Source: a virus. From it: a stretch of 5,834 nucleotides of DNA. The stretch spans positions 1-5,834 of IMG/VR virus record IMGVR_UViG_3300045988_007363, one strand, 5' to 3'. The notes under the pieces were generated by a model. The model saw only the letters and a list, made by a program, of their open reading frames with translations. It made no database searches and was not told the DNA's origin. The translations under genes were made by a program, and so were the position numbers. Shown in pieces: positions 1 through 5,834 of the stretch (the first letter of the stretch is position 1; every line of letters starts with the position of its first letter).

Positions 1-99
1 GTACAACGCCGCAGAAAGCTGGCAACAGATGCTCAGCACAACACATATGACACCCTACGGACTGACAAAAGCATTAACAAAAATTGCAAGCGGCACAGA
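1..99. repeat. Terminal redundancy, left copy, identical to 5736-5834. This is an assembly overlap of a circular genome.
   Basis: Base-by-base comparison shows all 99 nt identical to the last 99 nt of the window. The repeat lies inside one continuous reading frame (VP2). Confidence 0.95.
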
Positions 100-223
100 C
101 GATGCAATCAAAGATGCAGTAAAACCAACAACAAAACAACCAGACAAAAAAAACTACGTTAAACCGCAAGACAAAACAGGCAAATACGGAGAAAAAAGGA
201 AACCGGGTGATTATTTAAAATGA
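2..223 (+). CDS. VP2: 3' part of the minor capsid / DNA pilot protein VP2, continuing the frame opened at 5095 across the circular junction. Bases 2-99 duplicate 5737-5834.
   Basis: Position 1 (= 5736) is the third base of a TGG codon in the 5095 frame, and that frame continues to TGA 221-223. The track lists only the 29-223 fragment. The tail is Lys/Pro/Thr-rich (KPTTKQPDKKNYVKPQDKTGKYGEKRKPGDYLK). The stop overlaps the VP4 start (ATGA). Confidence 0.85.
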   Translation, partial: YNAAESWQQMLSTTHMTPYGLTKALTKIASGTDDAIKDAVKPTTKQPDKKNYVKPQDKTGKYGEKRKPGDYLK

Positions 224-1239
224 GTTGCTACAAGCCATTAATAAGGCTGTACAACCCGAACGATAAAGACATTAGCGGGAGGGTGTATTCACTCTCCCGC
301 TTTTCTCAATTAGCGGGAAGACAGCTCAAATATGAAGATCTAATGTACAGGAAAGATATAATGTTGATACCATGCGGGCAGTGTATCGGATGCAGAATCA
401 GACAAAGAGAGGACTGGACAACACGAATAGAATTAGAAGCAAAAGATTATCCAAGAGAACAAGTCTGGTTTATCACGCTAACCTATGATGACAATCATGT
501 ACCGGGCATGATAGTAAATACAGGCGAAATCATGCGAAAAGTTCAATACGTCTGGAAGCCAGGAGAGAAGCGCCCTGAAAGCGTCCAAACGTTGCTGTAT
601 ACTGACGTTCAAAAATTCTTAAAACGCCTCAGAAAGGCTTATAGGGGCAAATTACGCTATTTTATAGCGGGAGAGTACGGAGAGCAGACAGCAAGACCAC
701 ATTATCACATGATACTGTATGGATGGCAACCGACAGATCTAAAACACCTATACAAGATACAACACAACGGATACTTTACAAGTGAATGGCTATCAAACAT
801 ATGGGGAATGGGTCAAATACAGATAGCACAAGCAGTACCAGAAACCTATAGATATGTTGCTGGATACGTCACAAAAAAAATGTATGAGATAGACGGTCAC
901 AAAGCAAACGCATACTACGAACTAGGGCAAGCAAAACCATTCGCATGCATGAGCCTAAAGCCAGGTTTAGGCGATCACTATTACAAAGAGCACAAAGCAG
1001 AAATCTGGGAACAAGGCTATATCCAATGCACAAACGGCAAACACGCACAAATTCCGCGCTATTATGAAAAAATGATGAAAGCTGAAAACCCACAAAGATT
1101 ATGGCGAATTAAACAGAACAGACAAGCAAAAGCAATTGCAGAAAACCGGCTAAAATACGAAAACGCAGACTTTGCAGAACAGTGCAAGACAAAAGAAAGA
1201 GTGATCAAGAAGCAAATGAAGAGAAAAGGGACACTTTAA
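220..1239 (+). CDS. VP4: Replication initiation protein VP4, an HUH rolling-circle endonuclease analogous to phiX174 gene A.
   Basis: The 339-aa ORF has an N-terminal MSCYKPL followed by the IPCGQCIGCRIRQREDW cysteine cluster typical of gokushovirus VP4. It carries FITLTYDD (motif 1), the HUH motif PHYHMILYG (motif 2), and the two-tyrosine YxxxY motif YVAGYVTKK (motif 3), as in phiX174-type initiators. Confidence 0.95.
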   Translation: MSCYKPLIRLYNPNDKDISGRVYSLSRFSQLAGRQLKYEDLMYRKDIMLIPCGQCIGCRIRQREDWTTRIELEAKDYPREQVWFITLTYDDNHVPGMIVNTGEIMRKVQYVWKPGEKRPESVQTLLYTDVQKFLKRLRKAYRGKLRYFIAGEYGEQTARPHYHMILYGWQPTDLKHLYKIQHNGYFTSEWLSNIWGMGQIQIAQAVPETYRYVAGYVTKKMYEIDGHKANAYYELGQAKPFACMSLKPGLGDHYYKEHKAEIWEQGYIQCTNGKHAQIPRYYEKMMKAENPQRLWRIKQNRQAKAIAENRLKYENADFAEQCKTKERVIKKQMKRKGTL

Positions 1240-1256
1240 CAGTGTCATGGTGTCAC

Positions 1257-1292
1257 ATAGCCCAGTACCTATCAAGTAAGGTACTGGGCTAT
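1257..1292 (+). other. Perfect 14-bp stem-loop with an 8-nt loop, 18 nt after the VP4 stop. It is a candidate terminator or ssDNA origin/priming structure.
   Basis: Bases 1257-1270 (ATAGCCCAGTACCT) pair without mismatch to 1279-1292 (AGGTACTGGGCTAT). The loop is ATCAAGTA. The following TGTCGTCT is only moderately T-rich. The structure is certain; its function is not. Confidence 0.6.
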
Positions 1293-1351
1293 TGTCGTCT
1301 AAAGAGTCCATGTATCAAACTATTCAGTCTATCAAATAGCTATACTTTTAT

Positions 1352-1397
1352 CGCGCGTGCGCACGCGCGCGAAGCGCGCACGCGCGCATGCGCGGCC
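1352..1397. repeat. GC island of alternating purine/pyrimidine palindromes. It is prone to cruciform, Z-DNA or stable hairpin formation and may also act as an intrinsic terminator.
   Basis: 39 of 46 nt are G/C in an otherwise A-rich genome. There is an 18-nt perfect palindrome at 1352-1369 (CGCGCGTGCGCACGCGCG) and a 12-nt perfect palindrome at 1383-1394 (CGCGCATGCGCG). The 12-mer GCGCACGCGCGC occurs twice (1359-1370, 1376-1387). An alternative 11-bp pairing joins 1352-1362 with 1376-1386. Alternating Y/R tracts of 20 nt (1352-1371) and 21 nt (1374-1394) are present, followed by GCCTTTT. Confidence 0.85.
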
Positions 1398-1409
1398 TTT
1401 TAGGCACTA

Positions 1410-1439
1410 TTGTTCGCAAACTCACAAGTGCCGTATAAT
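1410..1439 (+). promoter_or_regulatory. Candidate sigma70-type promoter (weak -35, perfect -10).
   Basis: TTGTTC at 1410-1415, an 18-nt spacer, then TATAAT at 1434-1439, immediately downstream of the GC hairpin and T-run. The -35 matches only 3/6. Confidence 0.3.
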
Positions 1440-1479
1440 ATATAACTTGTTGTAGGAGTAGTAGTAGGGGTGGTGGAAA

Positions 1480-1647
1480 AGTTGAAAAGTACTAAAATTT
1501 AACGCTAAAGCGTAAATAAAAAGCAAAAAACACTGTTGAAAGTTTTGTTGAAAACTTGTTGAATTGTTGAAAGTTCGTCAAAATGACGGAAATCATTGTG
1601 CAACATTTTGTTGAAAACCTGTTGAAAGTGTTGAAAGTGTTGAAAAC
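1480..1647 (+). repeat. Iteron-like array of TGTTGAAA(AC/GT) repeats, all in the same orientation, in two clusters.
   Basis: Exact TGTTGAAA starts at 1534, 1546, 1565, 1609, 1620, 1629 and 1638. Near copies are AGTTGAAA at 1480 and TGTTGAAT at 1557. Spacings are 12, 11, 8 nt and 11, 9, 9 nt. Bases 1621-1647 form a 9-bp tandem run, GTTGAAAGT x2 followed by GTTGAAAAC (one mismatch). The clusters are separated by the small hairpin CGTCA-AAA-TGACG (1576-1588). Confidence 0.9.
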
Positions 1648-1680
1648 GCGCACAGCGCTTACAATGAATGGATTAGCCGA

Positions 1681-1699
1681 GCTCCGCATACGCTCCGCA
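1681..1699 (+). repeat. Direct repeat GCTCCGCA x2 with an 11-nt period.
   Basis: GCTCCGCA occurs at 1681-1688 and 1692-1699. The function is unknown. Confidence 0.5.
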
Positions 1700-1743
1700 C
1701 GGCAAGGCGCTAAAGCGCTCTCGAAACAAAGGAGCAAAACCAG

Positions 1744-1774
1744 GTTACAAGAGAAAGTTACAATTTTATTACAA
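1744..1774 (+). repeat. Three (G)TTACAA repeats immediately upstream of the peptidase promoter.
   Basis: GTTACAA occurs at 1744-1750 and 1757-1763, and TTACAA at 1769-1774, with spacings of 13 and 11 nt. They end 14 nt before the -35 box. Confidence 0.5.
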
Positions 1775-1787
1775 AACAGCAAAACCA

Positions 1788-1816
1788 TTGAAAAGCCTAT
1801 TGACAAGTAGTATAAT
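1788..1816 (+). promoter_or_regulatory. Near-consensus sigma70-type promoter for the peptidase-to-capsid gene train.
   Basis: TTGAAA at 1788-1793 (5/6), an exact 17-nt spacer, then TATAAT at 1811-1816 (6/6). It lies 44 nt upstream of ATG 1860 with AGAGGA in between. Confidence 0.6.
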
Positions 1817-1859
1817 AAAATTAGAGGAAGGTAAACAAAATAGAAGAGGATTAACAAAC

Positions 1860-2252
1860 ATGGAAATCAAAGCATATTTAGCAGAAGCGCAAGGAAACGA
1901 ACAAATTACAGATCACTTCAAAGTAAAGGAATTTGCATGCAAAGACGGAACACCAATCGTATTCGTTGACGATTATTTAGCAACCATTCTAGAAATCGCA
2001 AGAAAAAAAATCAATAAACCAATTATCATCACAAGCGGATATCGCACAGTAAGCCACAACAAAAAAGTAGGCGGAGCAAAATATAGCTATCACATGCGCG
2101 GCATGGCGGCAGACATCAGAGCGAACGGAATGACGCCAAAAGAACTTGCAAAAGTACTAAACAACATCGTCCCAAACAACAGCGGCATCATCGTATATGA
2201 CAACTGGGTACATTTCGATACACGAAATGAAAAATACAGAAAGGGGATGTAA
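1860..2252 (+). CDS. Zinc D,D-/L,D-peptidase of the M15 (LAS) family, resembling Peptidase_M15_3 / YcbK-like cell-wall peptidases. It is a putative peptidoglycan hydrolase.
   Basis: The 130-aa product from ATG 1860 has an upstream SD (GAGGA 1846-1850, 9-nt spacer). Signature sequences are HFKVKEFACKDG, then ITSGYRTVSHNKKVGGAKYSYHMRGMAADI, then WVHFDTR. This gives the expected H/D/H metal triad (H78, D85, H118). The track start at 1788 is a TTG lying inside the promoter, so I prefer 1860. Confidence 0.85.
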   Translation: MEIKAYLAEAQGNEQITDHFKVKEFACKDGTPIVFVDDYLATILEIARKKINKPIIITSGYRTVSHNKKVGGAKYSYHMRGMAADIRANGMTPKELAKVLNNIVPNNSGIIVYDNWVHFDTRNEKYRKGM

Positions 2253-2253
2253 A

Positions 2254-2367
2254 ATGGCACTGATTTCCATTAAAGACGTCAAGCAAGCAATCCGCATTAT
2301 GATGCAGATTCTCGAAAAGCTTGACGAAATCTATCATGCATTGCACGATAGTACCAACAAAAATTAA
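2254..2367 (+). CDS. Small hypothetical protein, 37 aa (MALISIKDVKQAIRIMMQILEKLDEIYHALHDSTNKN).
   Basis: It is not in the ORF track because it is too short. ATG 2254 lies 1 nt after the peptidase stop, with SD AAGGGG 2241-2246 (7-nt spacer). It exactly fills the gap to the next SD. It is predicted amphipathic-helical with no TM segment. Confidence 0.45.
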   Translation: MALISIKDVKQAIRIMMQILEKLDEIYHALHDSTNKN

Positions 2368-2379
2368 AAGGAGTAAACC

Positions 2380-2607
2380 ATGATGCACAAAACATGGAAC
2401 GTAAGAGACCAGACCACAGAAGCACTAAAAGAACTACTCATACGAAAATTAAAAGAAATTGACAACGACTACAAAATGCTTAGAAAAGTGTCAAATATCG
2501 AAGACGCTAAAAAGCTAGTAGATGAAATGTGGCAAATAAGAAGCTTTGCAAACGAAATTGATTTAGAGCTAATACGAAGGGAATATGAAAATGGCGCGAC
2601 ATCGTAA
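2380..2607 (+). CDS. Hypothetical protein, 75 aa, charged and helical.
   Basis: AAGGAG at 2368-2373 lies 6 nt upstream of ATG 2380. The ORF is co-directional and fits the gene train. I recognise no motif in it. Confidence 0.7.
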   Translation: MMHKTWNVRDQTTEALKELLIRKLKEIDNDYKMLRKVSNIEDAKKLVDEMWQIRSFANEIDLELIRREYENGATS

Positions 2608-2713
2608 GAAAATGAGCGGCGCAAAAGATCGCCGAATATTCAACACAACTGCACGAAAGACGAAAACTATCAACCTTAGCCAGAAACCTATGCGCGGTGG
2701 CATCCGGCTGTAA
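2591..2713 (+). CDS. Small basic DNA-binding/packaging protein (gokushovirus VP8/ORF8-like, functional analogue of phiX174 J).
   Basis: It is not in the ORF track. The sequence is MARHRKKMSGAKDRRIFNTTARKTKTINLSQKPMRGGIRL, with 13 of 40 residues Arg/Lys. The C-terminal PMRGGIRL matches the MRGGIR[LF] ending I recall for Chlamydia-phage-type ORF8 proteins. An alternative in-frame ATG lies at 2585. The ORF overlaps the end of the previous gene by 17 nt. Confidence 0.75.
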   Translation: MARHRKKMSGAKDRRIFNTTARKTKTINLSQKPMRGGIRL

Positions 2714-2729
2714 AAGAAAGGAAAAGACA

Positions 2730-2969
2730 ATGGAACATCTGTATTATGGACTGTGGGACAACGTAGCAAAGTGCTATGCATGGGTAGGCGAGAATAAGAA
2801 CAACGCAACGTTTGCACGAATGTGCAATGTAATGGAAAAGGATGAAAAAACCTTTGTAGGGCAGTCGCCGGAAGATTACACCGGCTATAAGTTAGCAAAA
2901 TTCAACGATGAAAACGGCGAATTTGTCAACGACAAGGAAAAAGTCTGGGAGGGCAAGCCGCATGAATAA
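2730..2969 (+). CDS. VP5-like non-structural protein, 79 aa.
   Basis: AAGGA at 2718-2722 lies 7 nt upstream of ATG 2730. The N-terminal LYYGLWDNVAKCY...NNATFARMC and central SPEDYTGYKLAKFNDENGEF resemble the pattern (xFxVxDxK...A.R.F...PEDFxLYxIGxFDdxxG) I recall for gokushovirus ORF5/VP5. The track start at GTG 2697 lacks an SD. Confidence 0.6.
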   Translation: MEHLYYGLWDNVAKCYAWVGENKNNATFARMCNVMEKDEKTFVGQSPEDYTGYKLAKFNDENGEFVNDKEKVWEGKPHE

Positions 2970-3360
2970 ACGATACGAGGAAGGGCGAGAGCCCTTCTTT
3001 TCCGAAAGCGGAGAAAAATTCCGGAAACAATACGTCTGGACAAAAGACGAAAAAGGACAAGAAGTACTGCAAGAAACAGCACCGATCGAAATTCAGCAAG
3101 AAATCGAAAGCTATGCTGAAGAATGCGATATTAAGAACATTATCCGAAAAGCAAGTTTTGACCCGCAATTTCTGAAAAGTCTATCACAGGGAGCACTAGA
3201 AGGAACAGAAGTGGACATCACCGAATTTCCACAAAACATTCATGAGTATCACCGCATGATAGCAACCGCACAGGCAAACGCAATAAAGCTTGAAGAGCTG
3301 AAAAAAATGGAAGCGGAAAAAGCAGAAGCAAAACCTGAAGCAAAGGAGGAAGAAAAGTGA
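2962..3360 (+). CDS. VP3: Internal scaffolding protein VP3, 132 aa.
   Basis: GGAGG at 2948-2952 lies 9 nt upstream of ATG 2962, which overlaps the upstream stop (ATGAATAA). The motif ECDIKNIIRK matches the conserved ECDIN.I..K core of Chlamydia-phage-type scaffold proteins. The C-terminal tail is acidic with alternating lysine/glutamate. It lies directly upstream of the capsid gene. The track start at 2908 has no SD. Confidence 0.75.
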   Translation: MNKRYEEGREPFFSESGEKFRKQYVWTKDEKGQEVLQETAPIEIQQEIESYAEECDIKNIIRKASFDPQFLKSLSQGALEGTEVDITEFPQNIHEYHRMIATAQANAIKLEELKKMEAEKAEAKPEAKEEEK

Positions 3361-5054
3361 ATCGAAACAATGAACGACACTTCAACCAAATTCCGGAAAT
3401 GAAAGCAAGCCGAACACGATTCAACCGTGACCAGACTATTCTCACAACGTTTGATGCTGGAAAACTGATTCCGTTTTACGTTGACGAAGTATTGCCGGGC
3501 GATACATTTAACGTGAACACGACAGCAATCATCCGAATGACGACACCGAAATTTCCGGTGATGGATGATGCATTCATCGACTTCTATTACTTCTATTGTC
3601 CAAATCGCATCCTATGGAAAAACTTTAAGCAGTTCATGGGAGAAGTAGAAAACAAACCCTGGATGCCAGAAAAAACGTACAAAGTACCAGAAATAAAAAT
3701 CGAAGGAACTGCAAATTCGGCAAAACCTCTCGAAAGAAGCATCCTAGACTACATGGGAGTGCCGACAAAAGTAAAAAGCACCTTCAAAATTAACGCATTG
3801 CCAATCAGAGCATATGTAATGATCTGGAACGAATTTTTCAGAGACGAAAATGTAGGAAATGCGGCAGTATGGAAAGATGATGACAGCGATGTAACATACA
3901 CCCAGAGCTACAATGAAAACTCAACCAACGCGGACAAAATGGAAAAAGAGCTAAGAGAAGCAATTACCGGCGGACTCTGTCTACCGGTAAACAAATTCCA
4001 CGACTACTTCTCAAGCTGTCTCCCCTATGCTCAACGTGGGCCGGCAGTGGCGCTACCAATGGAAGGTAATGCACCTATCAGATTGGGAAACACCAACGGA
4101 GAATACCAAGATTTCCGCGGACCATTAGAAATGGTAGTAGACGCACATGGAGCCAACACACCCGGTTCTCTGGTATACACAAATAGCACAGGAGCACCCG
4201 GTGAAAAGAAAACGATGCAGTTCACCGGAAAAGACAGAACAACCAACGAACTAGGCGGAGGGGGCTGGATGTATGCAGACATCAGCACAGTAACCGCAAC
4301 AACCATCAACGACCTGAGAAAAGCCGTAGCAGTGCAACAGTACTACGAGGCACTAGCACGAGGGGGTAGCAGATACCGCGAACAGGTACAAGCACTGTGG
4401 GATGTAGTAATCAGCGATAAAACCGTACAGGTGCCGGAATACCTAGGCGGTGGCAGATACCACGTAAATATTAACCAAATCGTACAGACAAGCGGACAGC
4501 AGACCAACACGGACACGCCTATTGGTGAAACTGGTGCAATGTCAGTAACGCCCATCAATGAAAGCAGTTTTACAAAATCTTTCGAGGAACACGGATTTGT
4601 AATCGGAGTATGTTGTGTACGACACAATCACAGTTACCAGCAAGGGCTTGAACGATTCTGGAGCCGAAACGACAGGCTTGACTACTACGTGCCTCAATTT
4701 GCAAACCTGGGAGAACAGCCGGTAAAAAAGAAAGAAATCATGCTCACTGGCACGGCAACAGATGAAGAAACCTTCGGATACCAAGAAGCATGGGCAGAAT
4801 ACAGAATGAAGCCAAACCGAGTATCTGGCCTGATGAGAAGCAACGCAGTCGGAACGTTAGACTTCTGGCACTATGCCGACAACTATTCAACCGTACCGAC
4901 ACTGTCGCAAGAGTGGATGGCAGAAGGAAAGAAAGAAATCGCAAGGACATTGATCGTGCAGAACGAGCCACAGTTTTTCGGCGCAATCCGAGTAGCAAAC
5001 AAAACCACAAGACGTATGCCGTTGTACAGCGTACCGGGCTTGTACAAACTGTAA
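3357..5054 (+). CDS. VP1: Major capsid protein VP1 (F-like jelly-roll capsid).
   Basis: The protein is 565 aa. The N-terminal FNQIPEMKASRTRFNRDQTILTTFDAGKLIPFYVDEVLPGDTF is the canonical gokushovirus VP1 signature. AAGGAGGA at 3343-3350 precedes GTG 3357 (GGAGG core 7 nt upstream), which overlaps the VP3 stop (GTGA). A downstream alternative ATG lies at 3399. Confidence 0.95.
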   Translation: MNRNNERHFNQIPEMKASRTRFNRDQTILTTFDAGKLIPFYVDEVLPGDTFNVNTTAIIRMTTPKFPVMDDAFIDFYYFYCPNRILWKNFKQFMGEVENKPWMPEKTYKVPEIKIEGTANSAKPLERSILDYMGVPTKVKSTFKINALPIRAYVMIWNEFFRDENVGNAAVWKDDDSDVTYTQSYNENSTNADKMEKELREAITGGLCLPVNKFHDYFSSCLPYAQRGPAVALPMEGNAPIRLGNTNGEYQDFRGPLEMVVDAHGANTPGSLVYTNSTGAPGEKKTMQFTGKDRTTNELGGGGWMYADISTVTATTINDLRKAVAVQQYYEALARGGSRYREQVQALWDVVISDKTVQVPEYLGGGRYHVNINQIVQTSGQQTNTDTPIGETGAMSVTPINESSFTKSFEEHGFVIGVCCVRHNHSYQQGLERFWSRNDRLDYYVPQFANLGEQPVKKKEIMLTGTATDEETFGYQEAWAEYRMKPNRVSGLMRSNAVGTLDFWHYADNYSTVPTLSQEWMAEGKKEIARTLIVQNEPQFFGAIRVANKTTRRMPLYSVPGLYKL

Positions 5055-5064
5055 GAAAGGAGGA

Positions 5065-5092
5065 AGCCCGGAGAAATCCGGGCTATTATTTT
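5065..5092 (+). terminator. Intrinsic terminator/attenuator-like hairpin between VP1 and VP2.
   Basis: A perfect 7-bp GC-rich stem pairs AGCCCGG (5065-5071) with CCGGGCT (5078-5084). The loop is AGAAAT and is followed by ATTATTTT. Confidence 0.5.
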
Positions 5093-5094
5093 AA

Positions 5095-5834
5095 ATGAAT
5101 GTATTATCAGGACTCTTAACAGGACTCAACGTAGCGGGAAACGTAGCAAACACGCTCAACACACTAACAAATACAGGAAAAAACATCGCGGGAATGTTCG
5201 GCGGCTGGGGACAAACCGGAAACAGCCAAAGCCAGGGCGGGAGCGTAAGCCAGGGAGGCGGGCACTCGGAAAGCGGAAGCCAATCCGGAACAAACATCCA
5301 ACAGGTAAATGACTGGCTTAAACAGGCATATGCATACCAAGGGCAAGAAGCCGCCATGCAAGGTAAATACAACAGTCAAAGTATGCTTAAACAGATGGGC
5401 TACAATACCTTACAAGCAATAATGCAAGGCGTATATAACCACATTGAAAACAGCGTAGCAATGAACTACAACAGTGCAGAAGCACTAGCAAACCGTGAAT
5501 GGCAAGAACACATGTCAAGCACCGCATACCAGCGTGCAGTTGAAGACATGAAAAAAGCGGGACTTAATCCAATCTTAGCCTTTTCAAACGGCGGAGCGAG
5601 CACGCCGGGCGGCTCAGCGGGAACAATCAGCGGTGCAAGTATGGGACTTGCAAGCAGCAGCGCACTAGGAGTAAGCAGAAGCAGCGGATTCGTACCGAAC
5701 GCATACGAAAGCACTAGCTGGTCGAAAAGCGACTGGTACAACGCCGCAGAAAGCTGGCAACAGATGCTCAGCACAACACATATGACACCCTACGGACTGA
5801 CAAAAGCATTAACAAAAATTGCAAGCGGCACAGA
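5095..5834 (+). CDS. VP2: Minor capsid / DNA pilot protein VP2, 5' part. The frame is open to the window end and continues at position 100 of the circle (287 aa in total).
   Basis: An in-frame TAA (5092-5094) immediately precedes ATG 5095, and no stop occurs through 5834. The hallmark NREWQEHMSSTAYQRAVEDMKKAGLNPILAF (5491-5583) is characteristic of gokushovirus VP2. There is a Gly/Ser/Gln-rich linker at 5218-5289. It is absent from the ORF track because it has no stop inside the window. Confidence 0.9.
   Translation, partial: MNVLSGLLTGLNVAGNVANTLNTLTNTGKNIAGMFGGWGQTGNSQSQGGSVSQGGGHSESGSQSGTNIQQVNDWLKQAYAYQGQEAAMQGKYNSQSMLKQMGYNTLQAIMQGVYNHIENSVAMNYNSAEALANREWQEHMSSTAYQRAVEDMKKAGLNPILAFSNGGASTPGGSAGTISGASMGLASSSALGVSRSSGFVPNAYESTSWSKSDWYNAAESWQQMLSTTHMTPYGLTKALTKIASGT
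5736..5834. repeat. Terminal redundancy, right copy, identical to 1-99.
   Basis: See the left copy. All 99 nt are identical. Confidence 0.95.

Follow-up and report, generated by a model that had tools for sequence, protein, structure and literature searches.

This analysis concerns an array of short direct repeats, copies of TGTTGAAA, in the 5,834-nt IMG/VR record IMGVR_UViG_3300045988_007363 (positions 1-5,834, hereafter the window), together with a conserved module of which the array forms the downstream part. The window is one circular gokushovirus genome with a unit length of 5,735 nt, positions 1-99 being repeated at 5736-5834 as a 99-nt terminal overlap. Every gene lies on the plus strand, as listed below, and the repeat array falls within the 620-nt non-coding region that separates the VP4 gene from the peptidase M15 gene.

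220-1239, plus strand: VP4 rolling-circle initiator
1860-2252, plus strand: peptidase M15
2730-2969, plus strand: ORF5-type protein
about 2962-3360, plus strand: scaffold protein
3357-5054, plus strand: major capsid protein
from 5096 across the junction, plus strand: VP2

The repeat array and the conserved module around it

The original prediction, made from the letters alone, described seven exact and two near copies of the repeat in one orientation, and all of these were recovered. Exact TGTTGAAA starts at 1534, 1546, 1565, 1609, 1620, 1629 and 1638, on the plus strand only and with no further exact copy in the window; copies with one mismatch lie at 1480 (AGTTGAAA) and 1557 (TGTTGAAT). The spacings of 12/11/8 and 11/9/9 nt, the two subtypes (TGTTGAAAGT four times, TGTTGAAAAC three times) and the 9-bp tandem repeat hold as well, the last as a tract at 1620-1645 with 2.9 copies and a 100% match in Tandem Repeats Finder. 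The genome-wide count against shuffled controls, which had been proposed as a check, gave seven copies of TGTTGAAA against a mean of 0.35 and a maximum of 3 in dinucleotide-preserving shuffles, 0 of 200 reaching seven. The looser core GTKGAWA occurs 12 times in the window against 3.1 expected, and nine of the twelve are at 1473-1645 on the plus strand. A supposed tenth copy at 1787-1795 had to be discarded, being outside the conserved module and two mismatches away from the box; it merely supplies the -35 hexamer to a promoter of consensus type (TTGAAA-17-TATAAT, 1788-1816). Two features had been overlooked, an extra box GGTGGAAA at 1472-1479 and, upstream of the array, a run of TAG trinucleotides at 1453-1467. 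The pattern TAGNAGTAGTAGTAG-N5-GTGGAAA-N-GTTGAAA has a single occurrence in the window and none in 200 shuffles.

With these additions the array is the downstream part of a module of about 215 bp (window 1434-1646). Its parts are listed here, the boxes being compared with the consensus DnaA box TGTGGATAA.

1434-1452, plus strand: AT-rich end resembling a DNA unwinding element, TATAATATATAACTTGTTG, 84% A+T; BLAST matches to divergent genomes begin at 1434
1445-1452, plus strand: near-invariant ACTTGTTG, directly 5' of the trios
1453-1467, plus strand: five DnaA-trio-type trinucleotides, TAG GAG TAG TAG TAG; the three box-proximal TAGs are 99% conserved, in part forced by the search pattern
1468-1471: G-rich gap of 4 nt, GGGT, from the trios to the first box
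1472-1479, plus strand: trio-proximal box GGTGGAAA, as a 9-mer GGTGGAAAA, with two mismatches to TGTGGATAA
1480-1488, plus strand: distal box AGTTGAAAA, offset by 8 nt from the proximal box, with three mismatches to TGTGGATAA and 12 nt from the trios
1497-1517: small hairpin of spacer 1, ATTTAACGCT / AGCGTAAAT, strong in some lineages and missing in others (z < -2 in 38% of 86 modules)
1534-1542, plus strand: array 1 box 1, TGTTGAAAG
1546-1554, plus strand: array 1 box 2, TGTTGAAAA; the orthologous box is TGTGGATAA in relatives L017, L031, L066, L079 and L095
1557-1564, plus strand: array 1 box 3, TGTTGAAT, in a tandem pair of 8-nt offset with box 4
1565-1573, plus strand: array 1 box 4, TGTTGAAAG
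1576-1588: small hairpin of spacer 2, CGTCA AAA TGACG; this spacer exists in three lineage-specific versions
1609-1617, plus strand: array 2 box 1, TGTTGAAAA; many relatives have TGTGGAAAA
1620-1628, plus strand: array 2 box 2, TGTTGAAAG
1629-1637, plus strand: array 2 box 3, TGTTGAAAG
1638-1646, plus strand: array 2 box 4, TGTTGAAAA, the right-hand end of the conserved module

The original prediction had suggested searching related microvirus genomes for arrays of this kind, and such arrays were found by each of three routes; the counts of modules that follow are raw numbers, uncorrected for shared ancestry. In a BLASTN search of GenBank phages, window positions 1434-1647 matched about 45 gokushovirus genomes at 70-94% identity. 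The boundaries of these matches fall repeatedly at 1434, 1572 and 1636/1647, and in several of the matched genomes the module aligns while no gene can be aligned by megablast. With a pattern for the module's left end, IMG/VR yielded over 70 additional microvirus contigs, each with 3-9 exact boxes in the following 260 nt; of about 45 chance matches in non-microvirus contigs, none had an exact box after it. The third route was capsid similarity alone (VP1 at 72-84% amino acid identity). Of 80 genomes so collected, 65 pass a strict module test and 7 more have 5-10 boxes, for at least 72 of 80 with the module, the rest being mostly partial contigs. Judged by these matches, the module is carried by hundreds of gut single-stranded-DNA phages.

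A consensus was built from 86 non-identical modules, and a box profile from the 838 boxes that they contain under a one-mismatch definition. The left half reads, in order, an AT-rich stretch, TTGTTG/ACTTGTTG, TAG-nnn-TAG-TAG-TAG, a 4-nt gap that is often GGGn, and TGTGGAAA abutting AGTTGAAAA. The right half consists of a spacer of about 45 nt, four boxes (spacings 12, 11, 8), a spacer of about 35 nt and three to four boxes (11, 9, 9). The profile of the boxes is T(.89) G T T(.85)/G(.15) G(.96) A A(.95)/T(.05) A(.90) A(.54). Column identity falls from 0.91 for the box cores to 0.72 for the positions between boxes, about 0.6 for the spacers and 0.43-0.52 for the flanks, and the stretch beyond the trios is AT-rich in every aligned module. 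Spacer types track VP4 clades, which suggests vertical inheritance of the module. The boxes number 7-12 per module (median 10), all in the same orientation and pointing toward the trios, and within clusters their start-to-start spacing is 8, 9, 11 or 12 nt only, save for a single 10. A repeat number that varied freely among close relatives had been named as a sign of slippage-generated junk; among the relatives examined, copy number and spacing are held constant, which answers that concern. The motif AACTTGTTG is seen again where two boxes join (1553-1561).

The conservation also bears on explanations that would place the repeats in RNA, in a promoter or in a reading frame, as a small RNA sponge, as stacked -35-like TTGAAA hexamers, or as a leucine/valine/lysine heptad encoded by open reading frame (ORF) 1583-1810. 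That ORF is open in the window, TTGAAA does resemble a -35 hexamer, and a TATAAT stands at 1434-1439. Among relatives, however, versions of the ORF lack the start codon, are interrupted by in-frame stops, carry a frameshift or lie in two pieces at separate places in the genome, so that the original prediction's alternative of a translated gene fails; the ORF is also without a Pfam match, and array 1 has TGA in all three plus-strand frames. At the RNA level, a scan of the whole window at a permissive E-value gave no Rfam match in the region (one sub-threshold match fell inside VP4), and RNAalifold on 43 modules returned zero conserved pairs. By per-sequence DNA folding, no more than 38-44% of modules have significant spacer hairpins, which are not defining parts. 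On the plus strand no terminator-like site was found in 1434-1700, and no -10 element is conserved. We therefore regard a function in RNA, promoter or coding sequence as scarcely credible. Three other candidates were rejected. A minus-strand ORF at 1492-1857 spans both arrays only since TTTCAACA lacks stop codons, and its alignment indels are not multiples of three; a dif/XerCD-like site at 1427-1460, compared by eye with known sequences, was dropped for a poor arm match; and for a miniature mobile element, neither terminal inverted repeats nor target duplications were seen in the alignments.

Correspondence with bacterial origins and the identity of the boxes

The Bacillus subtilis chromosome origin contains DnaA boxes #6 and #7, DnaA-trios and an AT-rich region. 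In that species TnnT repeats are the motif bound by the helicase co-loader DnaD. By definition, the basal unwinding system (BUS) of bacterial oriC comprises one DnaA box or two in tandem, a spacer that includes a gap of some 4 bp, and three or more trinucleotides whose middle base is A (Pelliciari 2021). The B. subtilis BUS, listed 3' to 5' in Table S1 of that work, reads after reversal TATAAAAAA-TAGTAGAAGTAATAGTAG-GGCC-TGTGGATT-TGTGGATAA, a polarity backed by the 5'-3' scaffold oligonucleotides of Table S3, such as that of D. radiodurans, CAGTAGTAGCAGTAGTAGGGCCTGTGGATACTGTGGAAAACT (Pelliciari 2021).

The left part of the phage module has the same elements in the same order and strand polarity. 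A BUS calls for three or more consecutive central-A trinucleotides with the consensus 3'-GAT-5', that is 5'-TAG-3', best next to the box, and the phage trios have this form, with TAG likewise preferred next to the box. It further calls for a box with at most two mismatches to TGTGGATAA and optionally a second with at most four, both read on the strand of the trios and to their 3' side; the proximal and distal boxes of the module stand in just this way, offset by 8 nt as are B. subtilis boxes #7 and #6. The BUS spacer is 0-16 bp long, with a gap of about 4 bp and a mode of about 13 bp from the upstream box, and in the window the G/C-rich gap is 4 nt and the distal box 12 nt away. The easily melted AT-rich DNA past the trios is present in both, and the strand opposite the phage trios carries 5'-TnnT-3' repeats of the DnaD recognition type. 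The location is where the two part. An oriC is chromosomal and typically lies in the dnaA-dnaN intergenic region, whereas this element lies between VP4 and peptidase M15 in a 5.7-kb rolling-circle single-stranded-DNA phage, away from dnaA and dnaN; it is therefore an oriC-like module on a phage and not an oriC. The phage version also differs in adding eight same-orientation boxes in two tight clusters, in its phage-specific invariant ACTTGTTG, in facing a nick-type hairpin, and in a box dialect that is mostly TGTTGAAAA.

The correspondence was examined in the reverse direction by scanning 185,579 bacterial and archaeal genomes with the pattern TAGTAGTAG-N3-6-GTKGAWA-N-GTKGAWA, for which we estimate about one chance match. 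At least 120 loci were found, among them loci of Bacillota, Acidobacteriota, Chloroflexota, Deinococcota, cyanobacteria and candidate phyla. In 64 of the 84 listed loci with enough flank, dnaA lies on the opposite strand and ends 56-1174 nt (mostly 56-260) past the boxes, as at the classical origin between dnaA and dnaN. Of the 120 bacterial matches listed, 118 have a gap of 4 nt, although the pattern allowed 2-5; among 80 phage modules, 68 have a 4-nt gap and the other 12 one of 3 nt. The same bacterial BUS pattern matched 109 microvirus contigs and 15 others in IMG/VR, and a version restricted to GTGG boxes had 22 matches in all of IMG/VR. Five of the 109 contigs carry the ACTTGTTG variants AGTTGTTG and ATTTGTTG.

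The boxes themselves vary between a phage dialect and the general consensus. Orthologous positions across phages hold TGTTGAAAA, TGTGGAAAA, TGTTGATAA or, 13 times, the perfect consensus TGTGGATAA. The GTTG-type box (T at position 4) is not confined to phages: it occurs in 29 of the 120 bacterial origin matches listed, including genomes with a canonical RDHTTV DnaA. In an Oscillospiraceae metagenome-assembled genome (L233, JAJQDP010000025), the boxes beside the trios of its own dnaN-dnaA origin are TGTTGAAATGTTGAAAA, with more (G/T)GTTGAAA boxes behind them at short spacing, and the origins of Ruminococcus, Ruthenibacterium and Selenomonas have TGTGGAAATGTTGAAAA. In Subdoligranulum variabile (L403, OY725881), intergenic box clusters mix TGTTGAAAA, TGTGGAAA, TTTTCCACA and TTTTCAACA. 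A plasmid database search with the module returned four weak matches (E about 0.7), two of them in Subdoligranulum box clusters, which we take as evidence on dialect only. The TGTTGAAA repeats are thus most likely binding sites for host DnaA, in a dialect also found in the native origin boxes of some Clostridia. The DnaA of the L233 genome has RNHSTM where the RDHTTV signature is usual; a link between a variant signature and GTTG boxes was considered and found unsupported, GTTG boxes occurring also with canonical RDHTTV. The S. variabile cluster adjoins an ORF of 770 aa that is ribonucleotide reductase-like by size and N-terminal sequence only.

A second microvirus lineage (L277, L281, L407 and L410 in IMG/VR, about 4.7 kb), whose VP1 is 35% and whose VP4 is 30% identical to those of the window, carries a module with five to six TAGs, GCAT, TGTGGAAATGTGGAAA and then four to five canonical TGTGGATAAC boxes; in L277 it follows VP4 and is inverted relative to the genes. 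Because this lineage carries canonical boxes, the array boxes of the phages are taken to follow the trio-adjacent boxes and the DnaA consensus, and not the phage initiator, as far as the sequences tell. Two non-microvirus viral contigs have a trio-plus-box element as well: L259, a fragment of a 23.6-kb viral contig, with a TGTTGAAAAC array that includes three boxes at an 11-bp period, and L329, a 12.1-kb locus, also with a TGTTGAAAAC array and with two large ORFs that are gyrase/topoisomerase-like by size and N-terminal sequence. Other phages of the same hosts, presumably double-stranded-DNA ones, may use the same host-initiator strategy.

These comparisons weigh directly on the original prediction that the repeats are iterons. 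Its general part, initiator-binding-type sites in an origin-like region near hairpins, stands; the choice of the phage's own VP4 as the initiator does not. VP4 would bind the repeats to position itself at the origin, as the Rep proteins of plasmids or CRESS viruses do, and the layout has an evident likeness: short same-orientation repeats near a conserved-loop hairpin, in the main non-coding region and beside the VP4 gene, as in the HUH-Rep origins of geminiviruses, CRESS viruses and pT181- or pC194-type plasmids. Iterons, however, covary with their cognate Rep and flank or abut the nick stem-loop in a fixed orientation, and the phage boxes do neither. VP4 identity to the window ranges over 38-93% among module carriers with the box profile unchanged, while the stem of the hairpin changes freely; the boxes drift toward the universal DnaA consensus and interchange with TGTGGATAA, are canonical where VP4 is 30% identical, and recur in bacterial chromosomes. 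They are joined to a complete DnaA-trio element, begin about 240 nt from the hairpin, and occur on either side of it in mirrored orientation. Iterons for VP4 are accordingly a highly improbable reading of the array. Recruitment of host DnaA beside a replicon's own initiator has parallels among mobile elements. The plasmid origins of pSC101, P1, F, RK2 and R6K have DnaA boxes beside Rep iterons, and the ABC primosome A-site similarly draws in host DnaA. The plasmid origins differ in that their boxes are few or even single, a trio element is missing, and Rep opens them at the iterons, and the A-site needs a box paired in a hairpin, whereas the phage boxes are direct repeats without such pairing.

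Host DnaA had been offered in the original prediction as a speculative alternative, by way of recruitment or titration. The DnaA part is now the best-supported one, while titration alone finds less favour than origin opening. The E. coli oriC contains closely spaced, same-orientation DnaA sites of low affinity, and datA and the B. subtilis DnaA-box clusters (DBCs) are clusters of such boxes. The phage arrays share with these several same-orientation boxes at short, fixed spacing, which are expected to guide cooperative DnaA-ATP oligomers or to titrate DnaA; they differ in spacings of 8, 9, 11 and 12 nt with abutting boxes, and in being joined to trios, which sinks lack. A sink of this kind, or a set of boxes regulating phage promoters, would work without unwinding. 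Ten boxes per multicopy replicative form would make a strong sink, and DnaA is a transcription factor too; in the window the consensus promoter follows the array after 140 nt, and one clade has about 70 nt between array and VP4 start. A titration site, though, is a box cluster without an unwinding element, and here the ten boxes are fused to trios, gap and AT-rich stretch. The trios, the fixed 4-nt gap, the 8-nt tandem pair and the AT-rich flank are unneeded by a sink and yet are the best conserved parts, the boxes are uniformly directed toward the trios, and the position of the module relative to promoters is not conserved. Titration or regulation as the sole role is improbable.

The neighbouring hairpin, module orientation and strand

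On its AT-rich side the module faces a hairpin that lies just past the VP4 gene.

1257-1292, minus strand: hairpin with a perfect 14-bp stem and an 8-nt loop, minus-strand loop TTACTTGATA, 18 nt past the VP4 stop

Under strict criteria, a loop with TATCAAG on a stem of 8 bp or more, hairpins of this type are present in 156 of 226 microvirus loci. The loop is conserved as (C)TATCAAG(T/A) on the gene strand and ACTTGATA on the other, and the stem covaries, with pairs such as cccagtacc/ggtactggg, gggcctaatcc/ggattaggccc, gccaagta/tacttggc and ggcctagtcc/ggactaggcc. The phiX174 origin of viral-strand synthesis reads CAACTTG^ATATTAATAAC, and the loop of the window carries its cleavage core ACTTG^ATA: positions 1268-1279 hold the reverse complement of ACTTGATA, the octamer that spans the phiX174 cleavage site. 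Chlamydia phage Chp2 has a 14-bp hairpin with the loop TCTACTTGAT. The phiX174 site differs in lying in coding DNA within gene A, whereas the motif of the window is on the strand complementary to the genes. The hairpin is a likely strand-specific origin or VP4 nick site, to go by its loop. We know of no DnaA boxes in phiX174.

Module and hairpin keep a regular relation to one another. On looser criteria (a loop with ATCAAG and a stem of 7 bp or more), 170 genomes have both in the same orientation, and in these a median of 119 nt (range 24-367) separates the hairpin from the module's AT-rich end. This end is turned toward the hairpin in about 180 genomes against about 5. The hairpin keeps its polarity relative to the genes throughout, also where the module is inverted; among the 86 genomes, 19 have the module reversed with respect to every gene. 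One clade, of about 39% VP4 identity, has the module in the interval from VP2 to VP4, as a mirror image across a hairpin of the same family (loop ACTTGTCTAT, then GTTGACACC), and its AT-rich end is still adjacent to the hairpin. A specific coupling of the module to the hairpin is on this geometry a real possibility, which we put forward tentatively.

The mobility of the module bears on another explanation, that of an autonomous theta-type origin, in which a self-sufficient mini oriC would load the host helicase, and the replicative form would replicate or persist as a plasmid-like episome independently of VP4 and the hairpin. Every sequence element for DnaA-driven opening is present, including the DnaD-type TnnT strand, the module tolerates inversion and relocation, and the same element with TGTTGAAAAC arrays stands in the two non-microvirus viral contigs. 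The direction of the AT-rich end, by contrast, suggests coupling to the hairpin, and a complete rolling-circle initiator is still encoded in the genome. We found no account of gokushoviruses in a plasmid-like state, and a lysogenic cycle is likely rare in the family (Roux 2012). We consider an autonomous theta origin unlikely.

In the window and 86 related genomes, the coding strand has an extreme excess of A (36-38%) over T (17-18%), whereas that of Chp2 has more T than A. Its composition is equal in both orientation classes of the module (A 36%, T 17-18%; four-fold AT skew of +0.57 and +0.58). The module orientation as a setter of strand asymmetry was rejected on this ground, the AT skew being the same both ways, and the module does not appear to define which strand is packaged. 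Inversion without a change in strand composition makes it more likely that the module acts on double-stranded DNA. The phiX-type nick motif of the window stands on the T-rich strand, complementary to the genes. The gokushovirus family of the window may package the antisense strand, to judge from this arrangement, unlike the characterised microviruses as far as we know.

Two further features of the non-coding region are described here for completeness. Between the hairpin and the AT-rich end, 1352-1394 is a 43-nt, G+C-rich palindrome of alternating purines and pyrimidines (CGCGCGTGCGCACGCGCGCGAAGCGCGCACGCGCGCATGCGCG); many relatives have similar CGCGCACGCG tracts in its place, and others have poly-G/poly-C hairpins. 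It could form Z-DNA or a cruciform, or serve as a G+C clamp bounding the melted region. On the other side of the arrays, 1646-1787 is a second conserved non-coding block (GCGCACAGCGC ... GAGCTCCGCATACGCTCCGCACGG ... GGCGCTAAAGCGC), directly upstream of the promoter at 1788-1816. Its translation in the ORF 1583-1810 frame shows about 87% identity to the 39% clade (tblastn), in which the block lies directly after VP4 and apart from the DnaA module. This block may be a promoter-control region.

A probable role for host DnaA in opening the phage origin

Taken together, the repeats are very probably DnaA boxes within a module of the unwinding type, a view that the anatomy and the bacterial counterparts support. 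The fuller reading, that 1434-1646 is a phage-borne, DnaA-dependent origin-opening module, an oriC BUS with extra DnaA-box arrays at which host DnaA would open the phage origin, we regard as probable. In the proposed mechanism, domain IV of host DnaA would first bind the ten same-orientation boxes of the double-stranded replicative form. A DnaA-ATP oligomer would then extend from the tandem boxes 1472-1488, over the 4-nt gap, onto the TAG trinucleotides of one strand at 1453-1467, and the neighbouring AT-rich stretch 1434-1452 would melt. These three steps would follow from the established BUS model and the anatomy of the module. In a fourth step, the opening, aimed at the hairpin 1257-1292 (loop ACTTG^ATA), would license the phage origin by either or both of two routes: single-stranded DNA might be exposed for VP4, which requires it as an HUH nuclease, or the host helicase loaders might enter, with DnaD on the TnnT strand opposite the trios and then DnaB/DnaI. 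The coupling to VP4 or to helicase loading is suggested by the conserved geometry.

Several observations weigh against this reading. In the complete genomes L010, L099, L366 and L376 and the partial contig L021, the module is inverted in place, downstream of the hairpin and with its AT-rich end away from it; inversion has therefore arisen more than once, and the proposed coupling of module and hairpin is not obligatory. In the second lineage, no obvious CTTG-loop hairpin was seen next to the module. The octamer ACTTGTTG is without a counterpart in bacterial origins and in that lineage. The conservation at 1445-1467 is partly imposed by the search pattern itself, and the IMG/VR matches come mostly from a single very large dataset, 3300045988, with which the GenBank genomes (from human, pig, monkey, dog, mink and raccoon faeces) agree. 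The box TGTTGAAAA has two mismatches to TGTGGATAA, and one of these falls within CACA, a core important to E. coli DnaA. A putative Oscillospiraceae host, finally, is suggested by the box dialect and a published peptidase phylogeny; it fits the placement of the M15 peptidases of human-gut gokushoviruses with Faecalibacterium (Roux 2012). Some carriers of the in-place inversion have a VP4 about 90% identical to that of the window, and variants of this kind are retained in genomes that were assembled in full.

Elements of this type are known already. What appears to be new is that a rolling-circle single-stranded-DNA phage has one, together with its conservation and arrangement there. The original prediction that no such array had been described for microviruses is borne out within the literature we could search, in which coverage of journals is incomplete: a full-text search returned nothing that joins gokushoviruses or Microviridae with DnaA or a DnaA box, phage-borne DnaA-trios are absent from the titles of the literature that mentions both DnaA-trio and phage, and we found no experimental mapping of a gokushovirus replication origin. 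The Microviridae surveys that we checked discuss only hairpins or peptidase genes (Roux 2012 among them).

To our knowledge, rolling-circle single-stranded-DNA phages are thought to need only their own HUH nuclease and host elongation factors. If the reading given here is true, a major group of human-gut phages has taken over the chromosome initiator of its host, and the hairpin and DnaA module together would be a concrete candidate for the gokushovirus replication origin. The phage modules would also be an independent evolutionary sample of the constraints on DnaA boxes, gap and trios. Gut Clostridia are hard to manipulate genetically, and the module would be a natural minimal origin from which to seed replicating vectors for them. 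The dialect of the DnaA boxes would allow hosts to be predicted for uncultured microviruses. A bolder extension, which we hold to be doubtful, is that gut gokushoviruses are licensed by the host initiator: DnaA-ATP on a portable mini-oriC of 215 bp would gate the replicative form, possibly with an integrase-free, plasmid-like carrier state, by opening at the phiX174-type nick hairpin. Were such licensing true, the box dialect would predict the host, here Oscillospiraceae such as Faecalibacterium or Subdoligranulum.

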